Source: an uncultured Bacilli bacterium (lineage in GTDB: Bacteria > Bacillota_I > Bacilli_A > RF39 > UBA660). From it: a stretch of DNA of 64,000 nucleotides. The notes under the pieces were generated by a model. That model ran no database searches and had not been told where the DNA came from. It saw only the letters and a program-made list of their open reading frames with translations. A program made the position numbers and the translations under genes. Positions 21 to 40,423 of this stretch are shown piece by piece (the stretch's first letter is position 1; the number at the start of each line of letters is the position of its first letter). The DNA lies in assembly GCA_934097015.1 (NCBI GenBank), contig CAKONF010000003.1, positions 630 to 64,629 on the forward strand, read 5' to 3'.

Positions 21-2576
21 ATGGAACTAAAGGGACTAAATGATGAAGAAGTAAAGATAAATAGAAAAAAATATGGAGATAATATAGTTAGTGAAAGTAA
101 ACAAAATAGTTTTTTATCACTTTTAATTGAATCTTTAGGTGATCCTATAATTAAAATTCTTTTAATAGCACTTGCTGTTAAAGTTGTGTTTTTGTTTAGA
201 AATTTTGATTGGTTTGAAACGTTAGGAATATTAATAGCAATATTTTTAGCATCCTTTATATCTAGTATTAGCGAATATGGTAGTGAAAAGGCTTTTAAAA
301 GATTGCAAGAAAAAACATTAGATATTATGACTAAGGTTAAGAGAAATGGAAATTTAACTAATGTTAATATAAAAGATATTGTTGTTGATGATATTGTATA
401 TTTGGAAAGTGGGGATTTAGTTCCTGCTGATGGTATTGTTGTTTTCGGGGGCGTTAGTGTTGATGAATCTGCATTGAATGGTGAAACTAAAGAGGCCTTA
501 AAAAATATTAATGAAGAAGTTTTAAAGGGAAGTATTATTAGTGAAGGTACTTGTTATTTGAAAATCAAAAGAGTTGGTAAGAATACTATTTATGGTAATA
601 TTGAAACAGAGGTAATGTCTAAAACTATTGATAGTCCTTTAAAAAGTAGATTAAGGGACTTAGCTAAAGTTATTAGTAGAATAGGTTATGTTGGTTCTGT
701 TTTAGTAGTTATTAGCTATTTATTTTCTGTTATTGTAATTAAGAATAATTTTGATATTAATTTAATAATTGAGACAGTCACTAATTATAGATTGATGATA
801 GATTATTTGATTTATTCTTTAACTTTATGTGTTACTGTTATTATAGTTGCTGTTCCTGAGGGTCTTCCTATGATGGTTGCTTTAGTATTATCAAGCAATA
901 TGAAAAGAATGTTAAAAAATAATGTTATGGTTAGAAAAATGGTTGGTATTGAAACTGCAGGTAGTTTAAATATATTATTTACTGATAAAACTGGTACTAT
1001 TACTAGTGGTAAATTAAATGTTAATAAACTAATTAATTATAAGGGATTAGAATGTACTAATAAGAAATATATGGATATATTTAAAAGTAGTATTTTATAT
1101 AATAATCAAAGTGAATATAGTAATGGTAATGTTGTCGGTGGTAATACTACTGATCAAGCAATTATGAGATATTTAAAGTTAATAAGACAAGAGGATTATG
1201 AACACGTTGTTTTATTTAATAGTAAAAATAAGTATTCTGTTACTAAGATGGTTAATAATAATTTATATTATTTTAAGGGTGCTAATGAAGTTATTATAGA
1301 TAATAGTGAATTTTATTTAGATGAATTGGGTTATAAACAAATTCTTAGAGATAAAAATAAATTGTATGAGGTCGTTAAGAAATTAACTAAAGAAGGCTTG
1401 AGGGTAATTAGTGTTGCATATAAAAATGGTAATGAATCTTTAGATGGTTTATGTTTTATAGGTTTTGTTGTTATTAAGGATGAAATAAGAGAGAATGCTA
1501 AGGAAGGAATTAATAGAGTAAGGGATGCTCATATTCAAACTGTTATGATTACTGGTGATGATAGAGAAACTGCACTTAGTATTGCAAGAGAAGTTGGACT
1601 TGTTAAAAGTATAAATGATATTGTGTTAACACATGATGAGATGGAGAAGATGACTGATGATGCAATAGCGCATATTATTAGCAATTTACGTGTAGTTGCA
1701 AGGGCTCTACCAACAGATAAAAGTAGGTTAGTTAAGATATGTCAGAAGTGTGATTTGGTTGTTGGTATGACAGGTGATGGTGTAAATGACGCTCCTGCTT
1801 TAAAAATTGCTGATGTGGGTTTTGCTATGGGGAGTGGTACTGAGATAGCAAAAGAGAGTAGTGATATTGTTATAATGGATAATAATCTAATTTCTATTGC
1901 TAACGCTGTACTCTATGGTAGAACAATATTTAAAAGCATTAGAAAATTTATTATATATCAATTAACTGTAAATTGTTGTGCTTTAGTACTTAGTTTTGTT
2001 GGACCATTTATTGGTATACCTACACCGATTACTGTTATTCAAATGTTATGGATTAATATGATAATGGATACTTTAGCAGGATTAGCTTTTAGTTATGAAG
2101 CACCTTTAAAAGAGTATTTAAAAGAAGAACCTAAGAAACGTAATCAAAGTATTATAAATAAATTTATGTATACTGAAATATTAATTACTGGTGTTTATTC
2201 ATCTTTTGTTTCAATATTTTATTTATGTAGTCCTTATATTAAATCATTGTTTAGAGTTGATAGAGATAATGTGTATTTTATGACTGGTTTCTTTGCATTA
2301 TTTATATTTATGGGTATATTTAATGCATTTAATGCTAGAACAACTAGAATAAATTTGTTAAGTAATATTAGTAAAAACAAAGTATTTATTATATTATTTA
2401 TGTGTATAAGTATAGTTCAAATGTATTTAATTTATTTTGGTGGAAGTTTATTTAGAACATATGGGCTTTCTTTTAAAGAATTAATGATTGTGTTAGCTAT
2501 GGCATTTACTGTTATTCCTGTAGATATATTTAGAAAATTATTATTTAAAAGACGTGGTGTAATTGATTATATATAA
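21..2576 (+). CDS. P-type (P2) cation-transporting ATPase, Ca2+-pump-like
   Basis: 851-aa ORF with phosphorylation motif DKTGTIT, hinge motif TGDGVNDAPALK and TM helices at both ends. GGAGG lies 5 nt upstream of the ATG. Confidence 0.9.
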   Translation: MELKGLNDEEVKINRKKYGDNIVSESKQNSFLSLLIESLGDPIIKILLIALAVKVVFLFRNFDWFETLGILIAIFLASFISSISEYGSEKAFKRLQEKTLDIMTKVKRNGNLTNVNIKDIVVDDIVYLESGDLVPADGIVVFGGVSVDESALNGETKEALKNINEEVLKGSIISEGTCYLKIKRVGKNTIYGNIETEVMSKTIDSPLKSRLRDLAKVISRIGYVGSVLVVISYLFSVIVIKNNFDINLIIETVTNYRLMIDYLIYSLTLCVTVIIVAVPEGLPMMVALVLSSNMKRMLKNNVMVRKMVGIETAGSLNILFTDKTGTITSGKLNVNKLINYKGLECTNKKYMDIFKSSILYNNQSEYSNGNVVGGNTTDQAIMRYLKLIRQEDYEHVVLFNSKNKYSVTKMVNNNLYYFKGANEVIIDNSEFYLDELGYKQILRDKNKLYEVVKKLTKEGLRVISVAYKNGNESLDGLCFIGFVVIKDEIRENAKEGINRVRDAHIQTVMITGDDRETALSIAREVGLVKSINDIVLTHDEMEKMTDDAIAHIISNLRVVARALPTDKSRLVKICQKCDLVVGMTGDGVNDAPALKIADVGFAMGSGTEIAKESSDIVIMDNNLISIANAVLYGRTIFKSIRKFIIYQLTVNCCALVLSFVGPFIGIPTPITVIQMLWINMIMDTLAGLAFSYEAPLKEYLKEEPKKRNQSIINKFMYTEILITGVYSSFVSIFYLCSPYIKSLFRVDRDNVYFMTGFFALFIFMGIFNAFNARTTRINLLSNISKNKVFIILFMCISIVQMYLIYFGGSLFRTYGLSFKELMIVLAMAFTVIPVDIFRKLLFKRRGVIDYI

Positions 2577-2616
2577 AAAAGTGAATTAATTTTGTTTGTT
2601 TTAATTCACTTTTTTG
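2577..2616. terminator. Bidirectional intrinsic terminator between convergent genes
   Basis: AGTGAATTAA / TTAATTCACT inverted repeat flanked by an A-run and a T-run. Confidence 0.6.
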
Positions 2617-2621
2617 TTGTT

Positions 2622-3488
2622 TTATTTATTAGATTTTGTTTCGTCATGTTTTATATCTTTTATGATTTTATTTAACTCTTCTTCTTTTAAATTAGTTAAT
2701 TCCATTATTTCTTTCTTTGGATAATTTTTGCTTAACATATTTTTTATTATTTCTTTTTGATTTTTTAAAATGCCATCAATTTCACCTTGTTCGTAAGAAA
2801 CTTCTTTCATGTATTCGTCGTAGTCATAATATAATTGTTTATCTAAATCTTCTATGTCTATATTAAATATTTTACTAATATCTCTCATTAAACCATTACC
2901 ATTATAAATATTATCTAGTAGTTTTTTATCATTACAAACAAAGAAATATAATAACTTTTCTAGATTATATTCATTCCCTTTCTTTATTTTATTATAGTCT
3001 ATATTGGATAAAAAATCTAGATTAATATCTATTACTCGAAGCATATTGTCTCTTAATATATGATGTTTCTTTTCTATCATCATGGAATCATATACAAATT
3101 CTCCTTTACCAAATAAATCATAATTATTTATGTTTATTTGTATTACACCTTTGACGTTTTTATAGTCATCACTTCTATGTACTTGTCTTAATATAGAGTT
3201 ATACATGTAAATATTATTTTTTACTATTGCAATAGGAACATTATTATAATTTATTTCTATGTTGTAATAGTTTTCATTATCTTTAACCATAACATCACTA
3301 ACACTATTAACGTAATTAGAATTGCTATTAATATTGGGAGTAATTAATTCTATGCTATCTCTTAATTCATGAACATCTATACCAGTAGAGGCACTAATTA
3401 ATCTAACTAGATATTCACGGCATGTAGGATTTTCACTATTAAGTAATTTTTTAACAACTTTATCTTTTAATAAAACACGTTCTCGCAT
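2622..3488 (-). CDS. PD-(D/E)XK nuclease family protein (Rpn/YhgA-like putative transposase family)
   Basis: Layout resembles Rpn-type nucleases: D...E-I-N core (DVMVKD...YYNIEINY), a conserved mid region and a C-terminal helical tail. GAGGTGA lies 7 nt before the ATG at 3488. Recognised by eye only. Confidence 0.45.
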   Translation of the reverse strand: MRERVLLKDKVVKKLLNSENPTCREYLVRLISASTGIDVHELRDSIELITPNINSNSNYVNSVSDVMVKDNENYYNIEINYNNVPIAIVKNNIYMYNSILRQVHRSDDYKNVKGVIQININNYDLFGKGEFVYDSMMIEKKHHILRDNMLRVIDINLDFLSNIDYNKIKKGNEYNLEKLLYFFVCNDKKLLDNIYNGNGLMRDISKIFNIDIEDLDKQLYYDYDEYMKEVSYEQGEIDGILKNQKEIIKNMLSKNYPKKEIMELTNLKEEELNKIIKDIKHDETKSNK

Positions 3489-3585
3489 TATCAATTCACC
3501 TCGCTTTCTATTTGGATTATTGGGCCCAAAATAACCATAACAAAATAGGGAAAATAATGCAAAAACGAGATTATTAAAATCTGCA

Positions 3586-3637
3586 TAAAAAAACGCACAG
3601 ATTTTTTAGATCTCCCTAGGGAAATCTTAAAATCTGC
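3586..3637 (-). terminator. Intrinsic terminator of the DUF1003 gene
   Basis: On the minus strand, GCAGATTTTAAGATTTCCC / GGGAGATCTAAAAAATCTGTGC forms a long hairpin followed by a T-run. Confidence 0.6.
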
Positions 3638-3687
3638 ACGATTTTTTTAACCAATTTTTAAAATCATATAAATTTAATTTTTTTTAA

Positions 3688-4212
3688 TTATTTTTCTAGT
3701 TTTTTTATTATTTCTTTTTGATTTCTTAGTATTGTATCCATTTTATCATGTAATTCTTCTAGTATTAATTCACTTTTTAAATCTATTCTATAATCATTTT
3801 GATTTCTAATGCTGTCTTTTTTTGCTTGTCTATTTTGACTCATCATAATAATTGGTGCTTGGATAGCAGCAATACATGAAAGTACTAAATTGAGTAATAT
3901 AAATGGATATGGGTCTATTTCTTTACCGCTTGTTAAAATCATTGTATTTATTACAATCCAAATAAGTAAAAATAATATAAACATTATAATAAAGAACCAA
4001 CTACCTGCTATTTCTGAAACTTTATCTGCAACTCTATCACCAAAAGTCATTGTACTATCTTCTAATTTGTCTACATCAATACTAATGGGTTGATCTACTA
4101 ATAAATCCAAAAGTTCTTGTTCATCTTGAATATTTAATTCTTTATTTTTTAATAACATTTTAACTATATCTTTTTTTGTTAATGTTGTTTCTTTTGTATC
4201 TTTCTTCTTCAT
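3688..4212 (-). CDS. DUF1003 family membrane protein
   Basis: FGDRVAD...GSW, two TM helices, then DPYPFILLNL....QAPIIMMSQNRQ. Start moved to the second ATG, which has GGTGG 5 nt upstream. Confidence 0.75.
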   Translation of the reverse strand: MKKKDTKETTLTKKDIVKMLLKNKELNIQDEQELLDLLVDQPISIDVDKLEDSTMTFGDRVADKVSEIAGSWFFIIMFILFLLIWIVINTMILTSGKEIDPYPFILLNLVLSCIAAIQAPIIMMSQNRQAKKDSIRNQNDYRIDLKSELILEELHDKMDTILRNQKEIIKKLEK

Positions 4213-4247
4213 TATTACCACCATATTGATTATAACATATTATTTAA

Positions 4248-4736
4248 TTACATATAACCATTTATTATAGTTTTTGTTTCTTTTATAGTTATGAATGCTT
4301 CATTATCTAATTTTTTTAGTAGTGTTGTTAATTCATCTAATCTTTTTTTATTAGTTTCTATTAATAATATAGTTTTATTTTTATCTTTATTTAATATTGA
4401 TACTCCGAAATTTTTATCTTTTATTTTTTTTGTATTTTTTATTTTTGTTGATATTACTATAAGTTCCATGTTTGTTTTAACAAATTTATTAATAAATGTA
4501 GTACCAAGTATTGTACCCATAGTATATCCACCTGAATAACTTATTACTATCCATAAATTTAATTCTACGTTAATTGCTGTTCTTGCAACTAATAGCCATA
4601 TAGTTATTTCTACGAATGCTATTAATGCTACTATAAAGGTTTTTCCTTTTATAACAAAAGTAGTACGTATAGTATTTAAAGATACATCTAGAATACGAGC
4701 AAAAAATATTTTAATACAAGTTAATAATAGAGACAT
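4248..4736 (-). CDS. UPF0316/DUF2179 family membrane protein
   Basis: The N-terminus IFFARILDVSLNTIRT, three TM helices and a soluble C-terminal domain are typical of this family. Confidence 0.7.
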   Translation of the reverse strand: MSLLLTCIKIFFARILDVSLNTIRTTFVIKGKTFIVALIAFVEITIWLLVARTAINVELNLWIVISYSGGYTMGTILGTTFINKFVKTNMELIVISTKIKNTKKIKDKNFGVSILNKDKNKTILLIETNKKRLDELTTLLKKLDNEAFITIKETKTIINGYM

Positions 4737-4797
4737 AGTACCACCTATTTTATAGTATGAAATAAATAAGTATAGTTATACTATTAATGGTGATATT

Positions 4798-5295
4798 ATG
4801 TATTTTTATATTAATGTATTTTTATTTTATAGTATATTTGGTAATTTATTTGAAAGATTTATAACTAGTATAAGACATATAGATTATACTAGCGGTTTTA
4901 TGGGTACTATATTTACACCTGTATATGGTGTTGCAATACTTGTTATTATTTTTATACATAATAAGATTAAAATAAATAATAAGTTTTTTAAAATATTATT
5001 AGAAATTATTATATATGGTGTTGTTTTAAGTTTATTAGAACTTTTTGGTGGAATAATGATAGAGAATACTTTTAATAAAGTATTTTGGAATTATGAAAGA
5101 TTTAAATTTAATATTGGAAAATATATAAGTTTAGAGACTGCAGTATTATGGGGTATTATGAGTGTTGTTATATTATATTTAGTACATCCTTTATTTAAAA
5201 AATTAGAAAAACATATTCCTAAATTTTTAACTTTGTTAGTAAGTGTATTTTTTATAATTAATTTAATTTATGTATTTATAGTTAAATTAACCTAG
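4798..5295 (+). CDS. Polytopic membrane protein (possibly CmpB / 'putative ABC transporter type IV' family)
   Basis: 165 aa with 4-5 TM helices and an N-terminal FLFYSIFGNLFE motif. Weak family recognition. Confidence 0.45.
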   Translation: MYFYINVFLFYSIFGNLFERFITSIRHIDYTSGFMGTIFTPVYGVAILVIIFIHNKIKINNKFFKILLEIIIYGVVLSLLELFGGIMIENTFNKVFWNYERFKFNIGKYISLETAVLWGIMSVVILYLVHPLFKKLEKHIPKFLTLLVSVFFIINLIYVFIVKLT

Positions 5296-5338
5296 TATAT
5301 TTTTTATAAATAACATAGTATAAGTTGGAGGTTATGTT

Positions 5339-5956
5339 ATGTTATTTGAACTAGATAGTGAGAATAGTGATATTCTTAATAATTTAGATTATTTTAATTT
5401 GAATAAGAATGAGATAGAAAATAAATATAAGTATATTAATAAAAAGTACGATAACGATAAATATGATTTTAAGAAATATGATAATGATAAGTATGACTAT
5501 AAAAAGTATGATAATGATAAGTTTGATTTTAAAAAATATGATTTTAATTATAATAAATATGATGTAGATTTTAATAATTATGTTTATGATAAGAATAAGA
5601 GAATTGTTAATGTAGATTTAGAGAAAGGATTTTATTTAGGTAATATATTTATTGATAGCTACGATGGATATAAGAATTATAAAGCTAAGAAAATAAATGC
5701 TTATAGTGAGCAACAAAAAATGCTTCTTAGAATATATGAATTAGATTTTATATTAAATGATTTAAATTTATATTTGGATATTAATCCTAATGATAAAAGA
5801 TTATTTGAAATGTTTAAGAAATGTGCTATGGAGTTAGATGTTTTAAAGAAAAAATATTATGAAAAGTATCAAGTATTAGAATTATGTAAAGATACTAAAG
5901 ATAAATATACTTGGATAAGTAATCCATGGCCATGGGATGGAGGTTATTATGTTTAA
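5339..5956 (+). CDS. cotJB: CotJB-like spore coat protein with N-terminal repeat extension (possible CotJA-CotJB fusion)
   Basis: The C-terminal half (LLRIYELDFILNDLNLYLDINPND...ELDVLKKKYYEKY...PWPWD) matches the CotJB pattern. It lies directly upstream of cotJC and overlaps it. Confidence 0.7.
   Translation: MLFELDSENSDILNNLDYFNLNKNEIENKYKYINKKYDNDKYDFKKYDNDKYDYKKYDNDKFDFKKYDFNYNKYDVDFNNYVYDKNKRIVNVDLEKGFYLGNIFIDSYDGYKNYKAKKINAYSEQQKMLLRIYELDFILNDLNLYLDINPNDKRLFEMFKKCAMELDVLKKKYYEKYQVLELCKDTKDKYTWISNPWPWDGGYYV
5441..5563 (+). repeat. In-frame 30-nt tandem repeat, about 3.5 copies (KKYDNDKYDF units)
   Basis: Read directly: aaaaagtacgataacgataaatatgatttt / aagaaatatgataatgataagtatgactat / aaaaagtatgataatgataagtttgatttt, then a partial copy. 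Confidence 0.85.
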
Positions 5957-6509
5957 GTACGATAAGAAACTTCCATATCCTGTAGATATTAAGAAGAAAG
6001 ATTTAAAAATGGCTAAGTATATTTTGACACAATTTGGCGGCTCTAATGGCGAACTTGGGGCAGCATTAAGATATTTTAGTCAAAAATTTAGTATGCCAAC
6101 CGAAGAAGGTAAAGCACTTTTAAATGATATTGCCACTGAAGAAATGGGACATAATGAAATGATATGTACTATGGTAAATCAGTTAATGAGTGGTGCAAGT
6201 ATAAAAGAGTTAGAAGATGCTGGGTTAGGTAGTACGTATACTGAGCATGGATATGGAATTTATCCTAGTGATTCAAATGGTGTTCCTTTTACTGCTAGTT
6301 ATATAGCAAGTGTTGGAGACCCTATTGCTAACTTAGTAGAAGATATGGCTGCTGAACAAAAAGCAAGAGTGACATATGAACATTTAATTGACTTAGCAAG
6401 TGATGAAGATGTTATACAACCATTATTATTCTTAAGACAAAGAGAAGTAGTTCATTTTAATAGATTTAAAGAATTATATGAAAAATATTTAAATCAAGGT
6501 TTTAAATAA
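5949..6509 (+). CDS. cotJC: Spore coat protein CotJC (manganese-catalase/ferritin-like family)
   Basis: N-terminus MFKYDKKLPYPV and the motifs GELGAALRY and EEMGHNEM. GGAGG lies 5 nt upstream of the ATG at 5949. Confidence 0.85.
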   Translation: MFKYDKKLPYPVDIKKKDLKMAKYILTQFGGSNGELGAALRYFSQKFSMPTEEGKALLNDIATEEMGHNEMICTMVNQLMSGASIKELEDAGLGSTYTEHGYGIYPSDSNGVPFTASYIASVGDPIANLVEDMAAEQKARVTYEHLIDLASDEDVIQPLLFLRQREVVHFNRFKELYEKYLNQGFK

Positions 6510-6609
6510 ATCTTGATTTTTTTATGTAAACAATATGTTTTTTGTAATTATGTTAATTTACTTATAAAATGTGGTGTGTTAAAATATAATTAGTGAAAGG
6601 GACTTAGTT

Positions 6610-7101
6610 ATGAAGAAAGAAAGAGTAGTACCTAAAAAGAATTATTTTTATTTATTATTAATGATTATTGGTGTAGTTGTTTTAACTTTTATTATATTTG
6701 GTTTAAATGATAAATATCAAAACAAAAAATTAGAAAGTAGTTATTTAAGTGGGTATGTAAATCAAATTAAAATTGAAGAAATTGATAATATTTTAGCTGA
6801 ACCTAATAGTGATATGTTTGTTTTAATAACTAAAACTGGTGATGATAATGTATATAATTTTGAAAATGATTTAAAGAAAATAATTAAGAAAAAAGATTTA
6901 AGAGATAATTTTATATTTATTGATTATAGTGGTAATGATAATTATGATGTAATTAATAAAAAATTTAAAAGTAATATTAAGAGTGTACCAGCAATTATTT
7001 ATATAAAAAATGGAGAATTTGTTAAAAATATTGATAGTAGTGAACATATATTAAATGTTGGTGATTTTGAAAAATTATTGGACGAATATGAGGTAAAATA
7101 A
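6610..7101 (+). CDS. Hypothetical N-terminally anchored protein
   Basis: 163-aa ORF with a single N-terminal TM helix, coupled to trmL by an ATGA-type junction. No confident family. Confidence 0.5.
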   Translation: MKKERVVPKKNYFYLLLMIIGVVVLTFIIFGLNDKYQNKKLESSYLSGYVNQIKIEEIDNILAEPNSDMFVLITKTGDDNVYNFENDLKKIIKKKDLRDNFIFIDYSGNDNYDVINKKFKSNIKSVPAIIYIKNGEFVKNIDSSEHILNVGDFEKLLDEYEVK

Positions 7102-7613
7102 TGATTAATGTAGTTTTATTTGAACCTGAAATACCTGGTAATACAGGTAATATTATGAGAACTTGTGTTGCTACTAATACTAAGTTGCATTTGATAAAAC
7201 CGCTTGGATTTAGTTTAGATGAAAAATATATTAAAAGAAGTGGTGTTAATTATATTGATAATTGTGATTATACTGTTTATGAGAATATAGAAGAATTTTT
7301 TGAAAAGAATAAAGGGACATATTATTTTTTGACTAGATATGGAAAGAAACCACATACTAGTTTTGATTATAGTAATAAAGATGAAAATATATATTTTATT
7401 TTTGGTAAGGAATCTACTGGTATTCCGCCTAAAATATTAAAACCTTATTTGGATAAATGTATGAGAATGCCAATGACTGATAAAGTTAGAGCACTTAATT
7501 TATCTAATACTGTTGCTATTATGGTATATGAAGCATTAAGACAACAAAATTATAGAGGTTTATTATTTACTGAACCTCATAAGAGTGAAGATTTTATAAT
7601 AGAAAATGGATAA
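7101..7613 (+). CDS. trmL: tRNA (cytidine/uridine-2'-O)-methyltransferase TrmL (SpoU/TrmH class)
   Basis: N-terminus VVLFEPEIPGNTGNIMRTC and ~170 aa, typical of TrmL/CspR. Confidence 0.85.
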   Translation: MINVVLFEPEIPGNTGNIMRTCVATNTKLHLIKPLGFSLDEKYIKRSGVNYIDNCDYTVYENIEEFFEKNKGTYYFLTRYGKKPHTSFDYSNKDENIYFIFGKESTGIPPKILKPYLDKCMRMPMTDKVRALNLSNTVAIMVYEALRQQNYRGLLFTEPHKSEDFIIENG

Positions 7614-7647
7614 AATTGTTTTATCTTTTTTTTGAAAGTGGTGAATT

Positions 7648-8355
7648 ATGGAAAATATTGTTATACCTAAACATGTTGGTATTATAATGGATGGCAATGG
7701 TAGATGGGCCAAAATGAAAGGAAGAAAACGCAGTTTTGGTCATTTAGAAGGAAGTAAAACATTAGAAAATATTGCCCTTTATGCAATAGAGTGTGGAGTT
7801 CAAATATTAAGTGTTTATGCTTTTTCAACAGATAATTTTAAACGTAGTAAAGAAGAAGTTGATTATTTGATGGATTTGTTTATAACTATGTTTAATAAAA
7901 AAATGAAAAAAATTAAAGATAATGATATAAAAATTATATTTTCTGGCAGAAGAGAACCTTTAAGAGAAGATGTATTAGTTTCTATGGATAAAATAGTTGA
8001 GGAAACAAAAAATAATAAAAGAGGAATACTTAATATTTGTTTAAATTATGGTGGACAAGAAGAAATTGTTGATGCTACTAAAAAAATTGTAGAGTTAGTA
8101 AATAGTGGTGAATTAAATATAGATGATATTGATAAGAATAGTTTTTATAAGTATTTATATAATGATTTACCACCATTAGATTTATTAATTAGAACTAGTG
8201 GAGAATATAGATTAAGTAATTTTATGCCTTATCAAAGTACTTATTCTGAATTTTATTTTACAGATACTTTATTTCCTGATTTTAATAATCAAGAATTTGA
8301 TAGAGCTATTGAGAGTTATAACAAAAGAGATAGAAGATTTGGTAATGCAAAATAA
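7648..8355 (+). CDS. uppS: Isoprenyl transferase / undecaprenyl diphosphate synthase
   Basis: HVGIIMDGNGRWAK, AFSTDNFKR and RTSGEYRLSNF motifs. Confidence 0.9.
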   Translation: MENIVIPKHVGIIMDGNGRWAKMKGRKRSFGHLEGSKTLENIALYAIECGVQILSVYAFSTDNFKRSKEEVDYLMDLFITMFNKKMKKIKDNDIKIIFSGRREPLREDVLVSMDKIVEETKNNKRGILNICLNYGGQEEIVDATKKIVELVNSGELNIDDIDKNSFYKYLYNDLPPLDLLIRTSGEYRLSNFMPYQSTYSEFYFTDTLFPDFNNQEFDRAIESYNKRDRRFGNAK

Positions 8356-35886: not shown

Positions 35887-37885
35887 GTATTTTATTATAT
35901 TATTATTTGTTGTATCTTTATGTTTTTTTAGAATTAATAATAATTCTATTTATAAAATTGATGATGTTAAATTTTATGGTGTTGTAATTGATTATCAATA
36001 TAAAAATGGTTATGTTAGTTTTATAATAAAAGGTAAAGAAAAATTAAAGTGTAATTATTATTTAAATAATAATGAAAAGTTTGATATTAATTATGGTGAT
36101 ATTTTATATTTGCATGGTATTTTAAAAGAACCTAATAATAATACTATTCCTAATACATTTAATTATAAAAAATATTTAGCAAATAATGATATATATTATA
36201 TATTAGAAGTAGATAGTGTTGATAAGCAAATAAGAACTAATAATATTATATATAAGTTAAAAAATATTGTTAAAGATAGAATAGATAAATATGATAGAAC
36301 AGGTTATTTAAATGCATTTATATTGGGTAATAAAAATAGTATTGATAGTGATATATATTCTAATTATTCTAAAATTGGTATTATACATATTTTTTCAATA
36401 TCTGGAATGCATATAAGTTTATTAGCATCTATTATATTAAGTGTGTTAAATAAAATAAAAAAGAGTGACAAAAATAACTTAGTTGTTATAATATTTTTAA
36501 TATTTTATTTGATTTTAACTAATTATCAAGCTAGTATAATTAGAAGTATTGTGTTTTATATAGTAATTAATTTATTTAAGATAATTAAATTAAAAGTTAA
36601 TACATTAGATAGTTTTTTTATTTCTATTTCTTTAATATTATTATTTATTCCTAAATTTATATATAATATAGGATTTTTATATAGTAGTTCTGTTAGTTTT
36701 AGTTTAATATTTTATAAAAATAAATTTAATAAGAATTATATTTTAAATTTATTATATGTTTCTTTTATAAGTTTTTTAATTAGTTTACCAATAACAATAA
36801 GTTTAAATTATCAAGTAAATGTTTTGTCTATATTTATTAATTTATTATTTGTACCATTAGTTTCTTTTATATTATATCCTTTAGCGCTTATTTCATTTGT
36901 TTTACCTTTTATTTGTACTTTATTTAATTTTTTTATTAGTATTACGGAATTTTTATCTAGTATGATAAGTAGCGTTAGTATATTTAATTTGTATATTCCT
37001 AAAATGAATTTTTATGTGTTAGTTATTTATTATTTGTTTGTATATTTAACTTTATCTAAAAATATTAGATGGTTTAGTTTGTTTATTATTTATATTTTTA
37101 TTATTAAATATATTAATGTTTTAGATAATAATTATTATATTTATTATTTGGATGTAGGGCAAGGAGATATGTCTGTAATTAAATATAAGGATGAATGTAT
37201 TGTAATAGATACAGGGCCTAGTAATATTTATGGGAGTACTTATAGGATAACAGATAATCATATAAAATTTTTACATAGTATAGGTGTTAATAATATTGAT
37301 TTATTAATAATTAGTCATGGCGACTACGATCATATTGGAGAAGCAATTAACTTAGTTAATAATTTTAAAGTAAAAAAAGTTATATTTAACTGTGGTGAGT
37401 TTAATGAATTGGAAAAAGAATTAATTAAAGTATTAGATAAAAAGAAAATAAAATATTACTCCTGTATTACAAAATTAAATATAGATAATAATAAATTATA
37501 TTTTTTACAAACAAAAGAATATGAAAATGAGAATGATAATAGTAATGTTATTTATACAGAACTTGATGGTTATAAGTTTATGTTTATGGGAGATGCAGGA
37601 GTAGAGAAAGAAAAATATATATTAGATAAATATAATATAAGTGATATAGATGTACTTAAAGTAGGACATCATGGATCTAAGACAAGTAGTGATAAAAAAT
37701 TTATTGATGAGATAAAACCAAAGTATTCCATAATTAGTGTTGGAAAGAATAATAGATATGGTCATCCAAATAAAGAAGTATTGGACACTTTAAATGATTC
37801 AAAAATATATAGAACAGATCAAGATGGTAGTATTATGTTTAAAATTAAAAATGATAAATTACAAATTGAGACTTGTAGTCCATAG
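35846..37885 (+). CDS. comEC: ComEC/Rec2 DNA internalisation channel with C-terminal metallo-beta-lactamase domain
   Basis: Polytopic competence domain (IGIIHIFSISGMHIS), then the MBL motifs YLDVGQGD, ISHGDYDHIG and VGHHGS. The start is uncertain (ATG 35846 or GTG 35834) and overlaps the end of comEA2. Confidence 0.85.
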   Translation: MFYLIELKNLLQYKYFIILLFVVSLCFFRINNNSIYKIDDVKFYGVVIDYQYKNGYVSFIIKGKEKLKCNYYLNNNEKFDINYGDILYLHGILKEPNNNTIPNTFNYKKYLANNDIYYILEVDSVDKQIRTNNIIYKLKNIVKDRIDKYDRTGYLNAFILGNKNSIDSDIYSNYSKIGIIHIFSISGMHISLLASIILSVLNKIKKSDKNNLVVIIFLIFYLILTNYQASIIRSIVFYIVINLFKIIKLKVNTLDSFFISISLILLFIPKFIYNIGFLYSSSVSFSLIFYKNKFNKNYILNLLYVSFISFLISLPITISLNYQVNVLSIFINLLFVPLVSFILYPLALISFVLPFICTLFNFFISITEFLSSMISSVSIFNLYIPKMNFYVLVIYYLFVYLTLSKNIRWFSLFIIYIFIIKYINVLDNNYYIYYLDVGQGDMSVIKYKDECIVIDTGPSNIYGSTYRITDNHIKFLHSIGVNNIDLLIISHGDYDHIGEAINLVNNFKVKKVIFNCGEFNELEKELIKVLDKKKIKYYSCITKLNIDNNKLYFLQTKEYENENDNSNVIYTELDGYKFMFMGDAGVEKEKYILDKYNISDIDVLKVGHHGSKTSSDKKFIDEIKPKYSIISVGKNNRYGHPNKEVLDTLNDSKIYRTDQDGSIMFKIKNDKLQIETCSP

Positions 37886-37897
37886 GAAGGAGTAGAC

Positions 37898-38771
37898 ATG
37901 AATTATTACAATGAGATAAAAAACAAATTAATTGATAATGAAATATATTCAAAAGAAAGGCATAAAGTTATTACATACTTTGAAGTAGGTAAATTGCTGG
38001 ATGAAGCTGGCAGTAAGTATGGAGATAATATTTTAAATGATTATTCAAATAGACTGTTTACTGAGTTTGGGAAAAAAGTATAACGAGAGAACATTGAGAC
38101 GTATTAGACAATATTATAGAATATTCAAAAATGAAAAATGGTCGCCACTGGCGACCAAATTGTCTTGGAACCATTATTCTGAATTATTATCAATTAAAGA
38201 CGATAATGAATTGATGTATTATATTAATATTGCATATGAAAGAAATTTATCTAAAAGAGAATTAAGAGAAAAAATTAAAAACAAGGAATATCAAAGAATA
38301 CCAATTGAAACTAAAAACAAAATAGTTTCTAAAGATAAAATTGAAGTAAAAGATTTAGTACCAAATCCCATACTAATTAGAAATAGAAATAATACTGAAA
38401 TAGTTACTGAGAAAGCATTATATAATTTAATTTTGGAAGATATTGAATCTTTTATGAAAGAACTTGGTAATTCATTTAGTTTTATATGTAATGAATATAA
38501 AATTAAAATAGGAGACAGAAATCATTATATTGATTTGTTATTATTTAATATAAAGTTTAATTGTTATGTAGTTGTAGAATTAAAAGTAACTGAATTTAAA
38601 GTAGAATATATATCACAAGTTCAAAAATATATGAATTATATTGATATGAATATAAAAGAACAATTTAATAATAATACTATGGGAATATTAATATGTAAAA
38701 GAGAAAATAGATTTGTAATAGAATATTGTTCAGATGAGAGAATTGCTGTTAGAGAATATGAATTGGTGTGA
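37898..38771 (+). pseudogene. DUF1016 (YhcG-like PD-(D/E)XK nuclease) gene split by a frameshift
   Basis: Two overlapping ORFs (37898-38083 and 38037-38771) join into one family-typical protein: ...LFTEFGKK / YNERTLRRIRQYYRIF...LSWNHY.... The frame change maps to the A6 run at 38072-38077. Confidence 0.7.
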
Positions 38772-38799
38772 TATAATATGTATATAGGAAGTGACCATT

Positions 38800-39513
38800 A
38801 TGGCAAAAATACTTGAAACAAATTTGTGTAGAATTAATTATTCCGATAGTTTGGAAGAATTATCTAATGCAATAGTTAAACTATTACAAAATAAGATTGT
38901 TGAATATAAGAAATTATTTAATATTGAATTTGATGAACAGATTATTGTGAATTATTTTGACGATTTAGAAGAGTTTAGAGAATTTATATATAAGATTAGA
39001 GGAGAAAGAGTGTCATTACCTAAATATGCAAAAGGTACTTATGATGATGGCGTGGTTAATGCATGCATTGAACCAGATACACAATTAAAAAGACTATATA
39101 CTGCGAGTCACGAGTTGTTTCATATTTTATATATGAAGTATATATTAAAAAATGATTATTCAAATAGAATAGTTTGGTATGATGAAGGTATGGCTCAATT
39201 TATTTCTGGGGAAAAAGATAAATATGCTGATGAAGAAAAATTTAAAAGATTTTACTTAAAGGTAAAGGAGAATACTAAAATAATACCAAATTTAAATAAT
39301 TTGAAACATGGTAATTCATTTTGTAATGATGAATATAATGGATATGATTTAAGCTATTTATCTGTTAGATATTTAAATGAAATATTAAATTCAGAAGATT
39401 TTAAAAAACTTATGTCTGATTTTTCAATTATAAAAGAGTATGGAAACAATTTAATATATAGAATGTTTGATTATTATGATTTGAAATTTGAATGTAACAA
39501 AAGAATAAAATAA
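38800..39513 (+). CDS. Putative zinc metallopeptidase-like protein (peptidase MA-like; HExxH ... EG.AQ)
   Basis: SHELFHILY followed by WYDEGMAQFISGE. AGGAAGTGA lies upstream of the ATG at 38800. Confidence 0.5.
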   Translation: MAKILETNLCRINYSDSLEELSNAIVKLLQNKIVEYKKLFNIEFDEQIIVNYFDDLEEFREFIYKIRGERVSLPKYAKGTYDDGVVNACIEPDTQLKRLYTASHELFHILYMKYILKNDYSNRIVWYDEGMAQFISGEKDKYADEEKFKRFYLKVKENTKIIPNLNNLKHGNSFCNDEYNGYDLSYLSVRYLNEILNSEDFKKLMSDFSIIKEYGNNLIYRMFDYYDLKFECNKRIK

Positions 39514-39573
39514 CATTAAAACTGCATTATCAAAAAATGTGGTTTTTTCTTTGAAAATAGCCATATTTCATTC

Positions 39574-40166
39574 GACTTACTAATTGACAATTAGCACATG
39601 GTGATAATGATCATATTGGTAATGCTAATTATTTAGTAAATAATTTTAAAGTAAAAAATGTATCTTTTAATAGTGGAGATTATAATGAATTAGAAGTTGG
39701 ATTAATTAGATTATTAAAATATAAAAAAATAAATTATTTTAAAGATATTGAAAGAAAGTATAGTAATAAAATAAAATATCTTTATTTAAATACTGAAGTA
39801 TATGATAATGAAAATGATAATTCAAGTGTAGTATATTTAAAAATATATAAATATAATTTTCTTTTTATGGGAGATGCATCTATAGTAAAGGAAAAAGATA
39901 TATTGAAAAAATATAACATTGGTGGTATTGATTTTCTTAAAGTAGGGCATCATGGGTCTGATACTAGTAGTAGTAAAGAATTTATAAATAGTATTAAAGT
40001 TAAATATAGTTTAATTAGTGTTGGTAAAAATAATAGGTATGGGCATCCTAAAGAAAGTGTGATTAATATTTTAAAGAGTAGTAAAATATATAGAACTGAT
40101 TTGGTTGGAAGTATAGAAGTAAAGATAAATAAAAATGGATATAAAATTAAAATTTATAATCCATAG
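39574..40166 (+). pseudogene. Truncated, frameshifted second copy of the comEC 3' end (MBL domain fragment)
   Basis: It translates to HGDNDHIGNANYLVNNFKVKNV...FMGDASIVKEKDILKKYNIGGIDFLKVGHHGSDTSS...NNRYGHP...IYRTD...YNP, collinear with residues ~490-683 of the intact ComEC. There is no start, an in-frame TGA at 39585, and a frame offset upstream. Confidence 0.8.
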
Positions 40167-40423
40167 AGACAAGGTCTAATGTATAAAAATTATTTATTTT
40201 ATTTAAAATATGAACTATTTTATGCTTTGTTTCATATTATATTATATACATTATAATGTTTTAAATATATTTTTGTATGAATTTGTACTTGTAAAAATGA
40301 GCATTTTTATATGCTTGTTTTTGCTTGTAATAAATAACTATTGCAAAATAAGTGTTTTAATTTTATAATAAATATGTAAGTAATTAGAAGTATAAATTAT
40401 TTATTAGATAAATGGAGGAAATT

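Follow-up and report, generated by a model that had tools for sequence, protein, structure and literature searches.

The competence gene comEC is entered by mobile elements in streptococci, where the prophages Phi1207.3 and Phi10394.4 and Tn1207.1 integrate in the gene (celB) by means of serine recombinases (PMC4260502). Here we describe the comEC locus of an uncultured Bacilli bacterium, contained in a 64,000-nucleotide stretch of contig CAKONF010000003.1 (positions 630 to 64,629; hereafter the window), in which an intact comEC is followed by two cargo genes and then by a second copy of its own 3′ end. We propose that positions 37316–39596 of the window are a 2.28-kb integrase-less cassette that was inserted by large serine recombinase (LSR) recombination at the CA of a comEC histidine codon, with the recombinase provided in trans by a phage. 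On the sequence comparisons presented below, we give this reading a probability of about 70%.

The likeness to Phi1207.3, Phi10394.4 and Tn1207.1 lies in serine-recombinase integration at one specific dinucleotide within the comEC coding sequence (PMC4260502). Unlike the cassette described here, these elements split comEC, bring no replacement tail, measure 7–59 kb and carry their own recombinases, and no stacked, integrase-less cassettes have been reported for them (PMC4260502). Their crossover dinucleotide is GA (PMC4260502), versus the CA of the HGDxDH histidine codon in the present case.

The staphylococcal cassette chromosome elements (SCC, SCCmec) and the tandem SCC-like defence cassettes at rlmH are similar in that LSRs act at a site in the end of a conserved gene (PMC11470126). 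SCC-like cassettes resemble those at comEC further in the tandem stacking of recombinase-less units, in their enrichment for anti-phage genes (candidate ones in our case), and in movement in trans, which for comEC we infer (PMC11470126). In SCC, on the other hand, the recombinase Ccr resides on one of the cassettes and not on a phage, the duplicated end amounts to a few codons against a 570-nt domain, and the target is rlmH, not comEC (PMC11470126). A second parallel is offered by the cis-mobilizable elements (CIMEs) and the integrative and conjugative elements (ICEs) ICESt1 and ICESt3 at the 3′ end of fda, where units that lack integration genes keep their attachment (att) sites and an incoming element enters a resident att site (PMC5704250). 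The resulting CIME/ICE composite can excise and transfer, capturing genes (PMC5704250). CIMEs differ from the comEC cassettes in relying on tyrosine integrases and conjugation, in being viewed as decayed ICEs, and in involving no replacement of a whole domain (PMC5704250). SCC-like defence cassettes and CIME/ICE accretion are the systems closest in logic to the one described here.

Two further arrangements bear comparison. At icd of Escherichia coli, e14 and phage 21 bring an alternative 3′ end that keeps the gene intact, and the old end is left as a pseudo-copy at the far side; these elements use their own tyrosine integrase, duplicate about 165 nt and form no arrays. The comEC cassette shares the replacement gene end and the displaced old end, and differs in the integrase, the length of the end and the formation of arrays. 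In the orphan C-terminal modules of rhs and cdiA, a full gene is followed by start-less 3′ tips with partner genes, all beginning at one conserved motif; the tips there encode unrelated toxins, accompanied by immunity genes, and their movement is ascribed to homologous recombination. The comEC arrays match this architecture, but their tips are homologous metallo-beta-lactamase (MBL) domains and their joint is a phage att site. A literature search found no paper joining comEC with DUF1016, the family of the first cargo gene, and the one paper that joined comEC with a serine recombinase and attB was not relevant. As far as searches go, papers do not describe the combination found here, in which the enzyme is borne by a phage, each cassette has a single half-site, a domain of 570 nt is replaced and arrays form behind comEC. 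The comEC cassettes are a form of site-specific accretion akin to SCC, to CIME-like elements and to the e14/icd replacement end.

Two comEC 3′ ends and the cargo between them

The source genome of the window (G000; other G numbers designate the genomes of relatives, and L numbers contigs) is a metagenome-assembled genome (MAG) of 1.19 Mb, roughly 20% G+C and 87% complete, with the standard genetic code; the A+T content of the window is ~80%. All genomes compared here are MAGs, in which contig breaks at the repeated comEC tail are common. The intact comEC gene spans 35834–37885 and encodes 683 residues with matches to the Pfam families DUF4131, Competence and Lactamase_B (the MBL domain). The locus is made up of the following features, listed by window position, strand and basis of assignment.

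35834–37315, + strand: N-terminal part of comEC (DUF4131, Competence channel domain, first MBL motifs); Pfam, N-part tree
37316–37317, + strand: crossover dinucleotide CA in the His codon CAT of HGDYDH, putative attB-type joint between the N part and the imported tail; centre of the L068 attP palindrome, identity switch
37316–37885, + strand: comEC tail 'Ca' of imported origin, covering the MBL domain from HGDYDH through the stop codon and today expressed as the 3′ end of the gene; tail tree, foreign nearest relatives
37898–38771, + strand: DUF1016/YhcG PD-(D/E)XK nuclease gene, inactivated, in frames 37898–38083 and 38037–38771 and with a 6-codon deletion; Pfam YhcG_C and DUF1016_N
38791–39513, + strand: second cargo gene, intact, for an HExxH protein of 240 residues; weak Peptidase_M9/MA_2 matches
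39514–39569, + strand: 3′ spacer of the cassette with a T-run, terminator-like region of the cargo; sequence
39570–39596, + strand: P arm of a large-serine-recombinase phage attP (ATTCGACTTACTAATTGACAATTAGCA), containing the TGA at 39585–39587 and forming a putative attR-type joint with 39597 onward; match to L068 attP
39597–40166, + strand: older, displaced tail of comEC ('REM') lacking a start codon, its frame open over 189 codons from HGDNDH up to the stop; alignments, tail tree
40167–40411, + strand: spacer to rny, conserved right flank; 91–92% nt identity to G004 and G001, in G001 directly after the comEC stop

A preliminary description of the window had recognized a collinear second comEC end downstream of the intact gene, and the alignments bear this out. 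Local nucleotide alignment of 37303–37885 with 39583–40166 gave 73% identity over ~585 nt, and BLASTP of the Ca and REM translations found 109 of 189 residues identical (58%) with no gaps (E 2e-70). The two copies stop at the equivalent position, as had been noted (TAG at 37883–37885 in Ca and at 40164–40166 in REM). The downstream copy had been placed at 39574–40166; its end is correct, but true homology begins only at the CAT at 39597. It was also described as lacking a start codon, as having an in-frame TGA and as showing a frame offset at its 5′ edge. The start codon is indeed absent and the TGA at 39585–39587 is confirmed in the sequence, but neither the TGA nor the offset represents decay of comEC, as both lie inside the 27-nt P arm; the offset was seen because P-arm bases weakly resemble comEC codons. 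REM itself keeps the HGDxDH, HHGS and GHP motifs, and its frame is open for all 189 codons. This is no evidence of function by itself, since about half of the displaced tails surveyed (31 of 64) still have a full-length open frame, the rest forming a decay series. The expressed comEC frame is open across the joint between N part and tail, the substitute 3′ end being supplied by a tail of foreign type.

Two other accounts of the paired ends were considered and rejected. A code in which TGA is read as tryptophan (table 4) extends REM by just 12 codons and alters nothing else, the TGA sitting in the P arm. A diversity-generating retroelement with template and variable repeats (TR/VR) does not fit a locus without a reverse transcriptase, in which the differences between the copies hit all bases over 570 nt and not adenines alone. 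The source genome also encodes a stand-alone MBL protein of 332 residues (G000:C2:26170-26910; L003) that is 38% identical to the comEC tail region; it is a separate conserved paralogue, present in most relatives, and lies outside the cassette system.

The earlier assignment of the cargo to a frameshifted DUF1016 PD-(D/E)XK gene and an HExxH gene agrees with the reading frames and the Pfam matches. In G000 the DUF1016 gene is 96% identical at the nucleotide level to the copy in G004, which has an in-frame stop; the gene is intact in G010, G002, G018 and G017, and in many genomes it begins 13 nt past the stop of the tail. An intact homologue of 296 residues matches the PADLOC candidate PDC-S02 (1.6e-59). 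The HExxH gene is 98% identical in nucleotides to its counterparts in G018, which belongs to another genus, and in L174, a contig of a Hadza gut MAG; PADLOC and PHROG searches with the protein gave no match. Over 76 nt of 3′ spacer and P arm, identity to L174 is 98.7%. A simple terminator scan did not call the spacer at 39514–39569; at other loci the cargo typically ends in a hairpin and T-run just before the P arm. A promoter and terminator scan of the region gave nothing above shuffled sequences except a G+C-rich, perfect 19-nt palindrome (TGGTCGCCACTGGCGACCA, 38139–38157) within the DUF1016 coding sequence, which is the sole terminator-like match of the region and was called on both strands.

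An attachment site of serine-recombinase phages at the junction

An att-like sequence had been anticipated at the edges of the homology, and one is present at 39570–39596. A consensus of this 27-mer, ATTCGACTTACTTTTTGACAATCACCA, stands before the displaced tails of G009 and, at two sites, of G010; the form in front of the G017 tail is related but more diverged. In each case the motif directly abuts the CATGG that encodes the His-Gly of HGDxDH, a position at which expressed genes have ordinary comEC codons. We surveyed the motif in 121 family genomes, one per genus, and in public MAG contigs. Ten of the 121 genomes contain it, and it occurs at about 55 sites in public MAGs of uncultured gut and rumen Bacilli, under labels that include 'Clostridium sp. 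CAG:524', 'CAG:762' and 'Mycoplasma sp. CAG:877'. Downstream of almost every such site lies a comEC tail or its decayed stub, and upstream lie the ends of unrelated cargo.

An exact search of IMG/VR led to the phage contig L068. It carries a complete attP, ATTCGACTTACTTTTTGACAATCACCA-CA-TGGAGGTATGTGGTTAGTAAGTCGAAT, situated 28 nt after the gene (L068:3540-4961) for a large serine recombinase of 473 residues (Resolvase, Recombinase and Zn_ribbon_recom domains). The site spans 56 nt and forms an imperfect palindrome, with perfect inverted repeats in its outer 12 nt; at its centre lies CA, the dinucleotide of the first His codon of HGDxDH. The P arm in G000 matches that of L068 at 23 of 27 positions (4 changes), and in most related loci the match is 27/27. 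Both products of integration were also found: attL, in which the N end of comEC is joined through CA to the P′ arm and the terminal part of the recombinase gene, in contig L190 (MAG SIG200) and in IMG/VR contig L206; and attR, consisting of the phage's own flank, P arm, CA and the comEC tail, in L198 and L067. From these comparisons, the CA of the comEC His codon appears to serve as attB for a group of temperate phages that infect these gut Bacilli, and in G000 we read the joint in front of the remnant as attR-type and the expressed joint between N part and tail (CA at 37316–37317) as attB.

The P′ arm occurs with at least three inner flanks, namely the recombinase gene (L068, L190, L206), TAAAAATTAGTTTATT... 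(L144, L177, L214) and ATAAATTGGCTCAC... (L164, L192); therefore, several element types use one att site. Some of these contigs are binned as Treponema, Clostridia or Oscillospiraceae, and for some att-bearing contigs the assigned taxon (Treponema, Muribaculaceae, Saccharibacteria) may reflect misbinning.

Cassette content was compared across about 60 related loci. Each unit opens with a comEC tail, which is followed by a gene of either the DUF1016 or the Bro-N/DinD-like type; one more gene may come next, and a terminator and the P arm close the unit. Cassettes contain 1–3 genes and are stacked one to three deep. Tandem arrays bordered by att-derived repeats are found in G010, G057, G097, L148, L200, L201 and others; G000 has a single cassette. 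The Bro-N cassette protein matches the PADLOC candidate PDC-S13 (2.7e-97).

These data bear on the suggestion, made in the preliminary description, that an element with a substitute 3′ end integrated itself into comEC and subsequently lost its integrase. Foreign entry, an intact gene and a displaced resident end all stand, but the locus does not look like a self-integrating element, and its att half-site is that of a separate phage, which encodes an LSR and has no comEC tail. One may still envisage a decayed prophage or integrative element of the e14 or phage 21 type, once equipped with its own integrase and a substitute comEC end, from which the integrase and the rest were later deleted. LSR phages do integrate at exactly this site, the right end of the cassette is the P arm of such a phage, and elements with replacement gene ends exist, as at icd. 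We nonetheless consider this origin unlikely. The sole phage found with a complete attP, L068, has the recombinase gene and not a comEC tail on the P′ side, and integration of its type splits comEC, as in the attL of L190 and L206. In G000 and in all arrays the left joint is a clean attB from which the P′ arm is absent. No recombinase is encoded in 37316–39596 or across the roughly 60 related cassettes, in which no phage structural gene or fragment was seen either; there is thus no sign that an integrase was ever part of the element. The sequence upstream of the P arm, moreover, varies between cassette types and differs from the phage flank.

A different kind of mobility could have been conferred by the cargo itself. 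DUF1016 might act as a free-standing, homing-type endonuclease that cuts comEC at the HGDxDH codons, so that the tail is co-converted during repair and the remnants are scars of end joining. This would suit the position of a PD-(D/E)XK gene 13 nt after the tail stop in many genomes and the presence of Ku and LigD genes at 32905–34513. The junction, though, is a conserved att half-site of a phage, where end joining would have left a variable scar, Bro-N cassettes that lack DUF1016 have the identical joint, and the structure is stable even though DUF1016 is broken in G000 and G004. We dropped the model on the strength of the half-site and the Bro-N cassettes, and its probability is very low.

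Mosaicism of tails and cassettes

Among the 40 relatives searched for ComEC, extra partial copies starting at residue 493–495 were found in G010 (two), G009 and G005, and partial copies starting further in were found in G017, G014 and G024; in G030 there is a contig break at residue 493–495. Maximum-likelihood trees were built separately for the N part and the tail. The N-part tree recovers the genus and places G004 as sister to G000 with 100/100 support, and we take the N part (35834–37315) to be the vertically inherited portion of the gene. The tail tree disagrees. In it, the expressed tail of G000 groups with those of G018, G024 and G017, all members of other genera, and REM groups (100/100) with the expressed tail of the same-genus G002 (74% amino acid and 80% nucleotide identity) and with the remnant in G009. 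Pairwise amino acid identities to G000 follow the same division at residue 493.

G004 (sister): N part 78%, tail (residues 493–683) 61%
G018 (other genus): N part 36%, tail 84%
G024 (other genus): N part 35%, tail 83%
G017 (other genus): N part 33%, tail 80%

The two ends in G000 had been described as strongly diverged copies; the tail tree shows that they do not descend from one duplicate and are different alleles from different lineages. An ancient tandem duplication of comEA-comEC was rejected as well: the two comEA genes are 42% identical, yet the comEC tails differ in phylogenetic origin.

We compared 150 nt on either side of the CA in 39 expressed comEC genes to locate the switch. Between G000 and G004, identity is 93% over the 150 nt before the CA, with 59 of the last 60 positions upstream of 37316 identical, and falls to 60% after it. 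Between G000 and G024 it rises from 36% to 93% at the same dinucleotide, and many other pairs behave alike. The cassettes are themselves mosaic. In G000, the tail is 90% identical in nucleotides to that of L158 ('Clostridium sp. CAG:524'), DUF1016 is 96% identical to that of G004, and HExxH with the P arm is 98% identical to L174 and G018. The comparison with L174 is the strongest single observation. Its identity to G000 runs at ~98% from a point within DUF1016, across HExxH, the terminator region and the variant P arm (which has one further difference in L174), as far as ...TTAGCA|CATGG, past which identity collapses and a different tail follows. Because L174 and G000 share the cassette end, including the variant P arm, and then have different tails, the P arm travels with the cassette.

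Could homologous recombination alone have produced these patterns? Natural transformation might shuffle tails and neighbouring genes, with tandem copies arising by unequal crossing-over or from an old duplication, and no site-specific step would be needed. The organisms encode comEA and comEC, and some breakpoints do fall inside tails and inside DUF1016, the latter being where L174/G000 identity begins. The tail of G004 is chimeric: over the first ~430 nt it belongs to a third type (Cx), and the last ~150 nt before the stop, together with DUF1016, are 93–100% identical to G000. Homologous recombination between tails, with the exchange in the conserved GKNNRYGHP region, would be expected to give such a tail. 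As the only process, however, homologous recombination leaves unexplained why a non-comEC 27-mer identical to a phage attP half-site stands before nearly every displaced tail, and why identity switches abruptly at one dinucleotide in many independent pairs. The att site of L068, the joints of the displaced tails and the switch at CA already contradict it, and we judge it very improbable as a full account.

The history of the locus can be followed in part. What G004 retains is ~45 nt from the start of HExxH and ~15 nt from the end of a remnant; it is therefore a 1.33-kb deletion derivative of a G000-like arrangement. An empty site, proposed earlier as a comparison, exists in G001, where the right flank (91% nt identity) directly follows a complete tail and the cassette is absent; that tail, though, is Cx, which is neither of the G000 types. 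REM is the older resident tail at this position in the G000 lineage. The phylogeny that had been proposed for identifying the native copy separates the two tails and joins REM to a same-genus relative, but tail turnover is too fast for it to single out a native tail of the clade. The element in G000 is best regarded as a fossil: its P arm is mutated (4 changes), its DUF1016 gene is disrupted, and a search of the assembly (87% complete) turned up no cognate recombinase.

The genes around the cassette were also compared with those of G004 (L033). Over 34574–37315, amino acid identity is 79% for comEA1, 64% for comEA2 and 78% for the comEC N part. Flanking genes are 91–97.5% identical (Ku 96.5%, RNase Y 97.5%, an HD protein 91%, and the next open reading frame 97%). 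The far greater divergence of the uptake genes suggests allele replacement or fast evolution of surface-exposed uptake machinery. Ku and LigD (32905–34513) form a minimal pair, with a ligase-only LigD, directly upstream of the comEA genes. In relatives, contigs frequently end at comEC residue ~494, just behind it, or a short way past the comEC stop (G030:C13/C14, G009:C2/C25, G001:C15, G007:C19). These breaks probably result from the repeated tails and might be used as an inexpensive sign that a MAG contains cassette arrays.

A putative route of mobilization in trans

For cassette insertion by a phage-borne recombinase, the reading we prefer, the steps can be set out as follows. The cassette would carry, in order, a comEC tail, the DUF1016 gene, the HExxH gene, the terminator region and the 27-nt P arm, and LSR recombination would place it at the CA of the first His codon of HGDxDH. 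Because the cassette begins with a complete tail, attB is regenerated and comEC stays intact. The resident tail would be left behind an attR-type joint (P arm, CA and tail) as a promoterless, start-less copy. The recombinase would be supplied by a phage in trans, the cassette riding on the att chemistry of the phage. Homologous recombination among the repeated tails and DUF1016 genes then reshuffles and collapses the arrays. The att identities, the position of the junction, the mosaicism, the recurrence, the mobility of the cassette end and the reshuffling by homologous recombination are shown by the comparisons above, and the trans action of the phage enzyme and the route of mobilization are inferred.

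Two routes would be compatible with canonical LSR reactions. In the first (route a), recombination between attL and a distal attR in a lysogen of an array-bearing host would allow the phage to leave with [attR-tail-cargo]; after integrating in a new host, it would later excise via the proximal attR, generating N-attB-tail-cargo-attR-resident tail. In the second (route b), a cassette circle with an attR-type joint would recombine with the attL of a resident element, generating N-attB-tail-cargo-attP-element. Two chromosomal contigs are of interest in this regard. L192 (JAIKYM010000035.1, 1–3316) has an intact comEC, a cassette, a complete attP (P arm-CA-P′ arm) in place of attR, and a further element. 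L214 (Ga0129307_1000331, 2174–7711) has an intact comEC, a cassette, a complete attP, two further genes, and a decayed attR with a tail stub. Both structures match the prediction of route b exactly and give an indirect hint of an excised circular form; an attP × attR event would yield the same structure.

Several observations weigh against cassette insertion in trans. No cassette-carrying phage genome was found, and IMG/VR yielded only 3 contigs with these arms. A profile search of IMG/VR for comEC tails returned 63 distant, generic MBL proteins only, and a single-protein query returned nothing. A metagenome scan for intact attP gave one contig, L214, which is chromosomal and not a cassette-carrying phage. 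No close homologue of the L068 recombinase was detected in 200 sampled family genomes, in G000 or in five att-bearing genomes, where the only homologues had an identity of 33% or less; the five serine recombinases of G000 are located elsewhere and share 34% identity with the L068 enzyme in the catalytic domain only. Canonical LSR rules permit attP × attB and attL × attR only; the origin of the first cassette, or a direct attB × attR exchange, would need non-canonical or illegitimate events. Finally, the nearest N-part relatives, G001, G003 and G004, carry the third tail type, Cx, and REM is not demonstrably the vertical tail of the clade.

For annotation, the arrangement accounts for the recurrent 'comEC pseudogene' fragments, and for the contig breaks at comEC residue ~494, in MAGs of this family, and it provides a defined attB/attP pair plus recombinase from uncultured gut bacteria. 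For the biology of these organisms, it indicates how small cassettes without a recombinase can come to use a phage att site in an essential competence gene as their landing pad, each cassette repairing the gene it has entered by bringing a whole replacement domain. Three subjects that are mostly dealt with separately thereby meet at one locus: how prophages control competence, how mobile cassettes accrete at serine-recombinase sites, and how candidate anti-phage genes (DUF1016/PDC-S02 and Bro-N/PDC-S13) spread. More tentatively, and with somewhat less than even odds in our estimation, gut Bacilli of this family may host an integron-like exchange system driven by phage LSRs, in which minimal cassettes circulate between genera as circles or as passengers of comEC-targeting phages, keep competence and stack. 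The minimal cassette of such a system may comprise, besides a single att half-site of 27 nt, a spare tail encoding the comEC nuclease domain and one or two candidate genes for defence. If this is true, the family would have a stock of shuffled defence genes and alternative ComEC nuclease domains to draw on.

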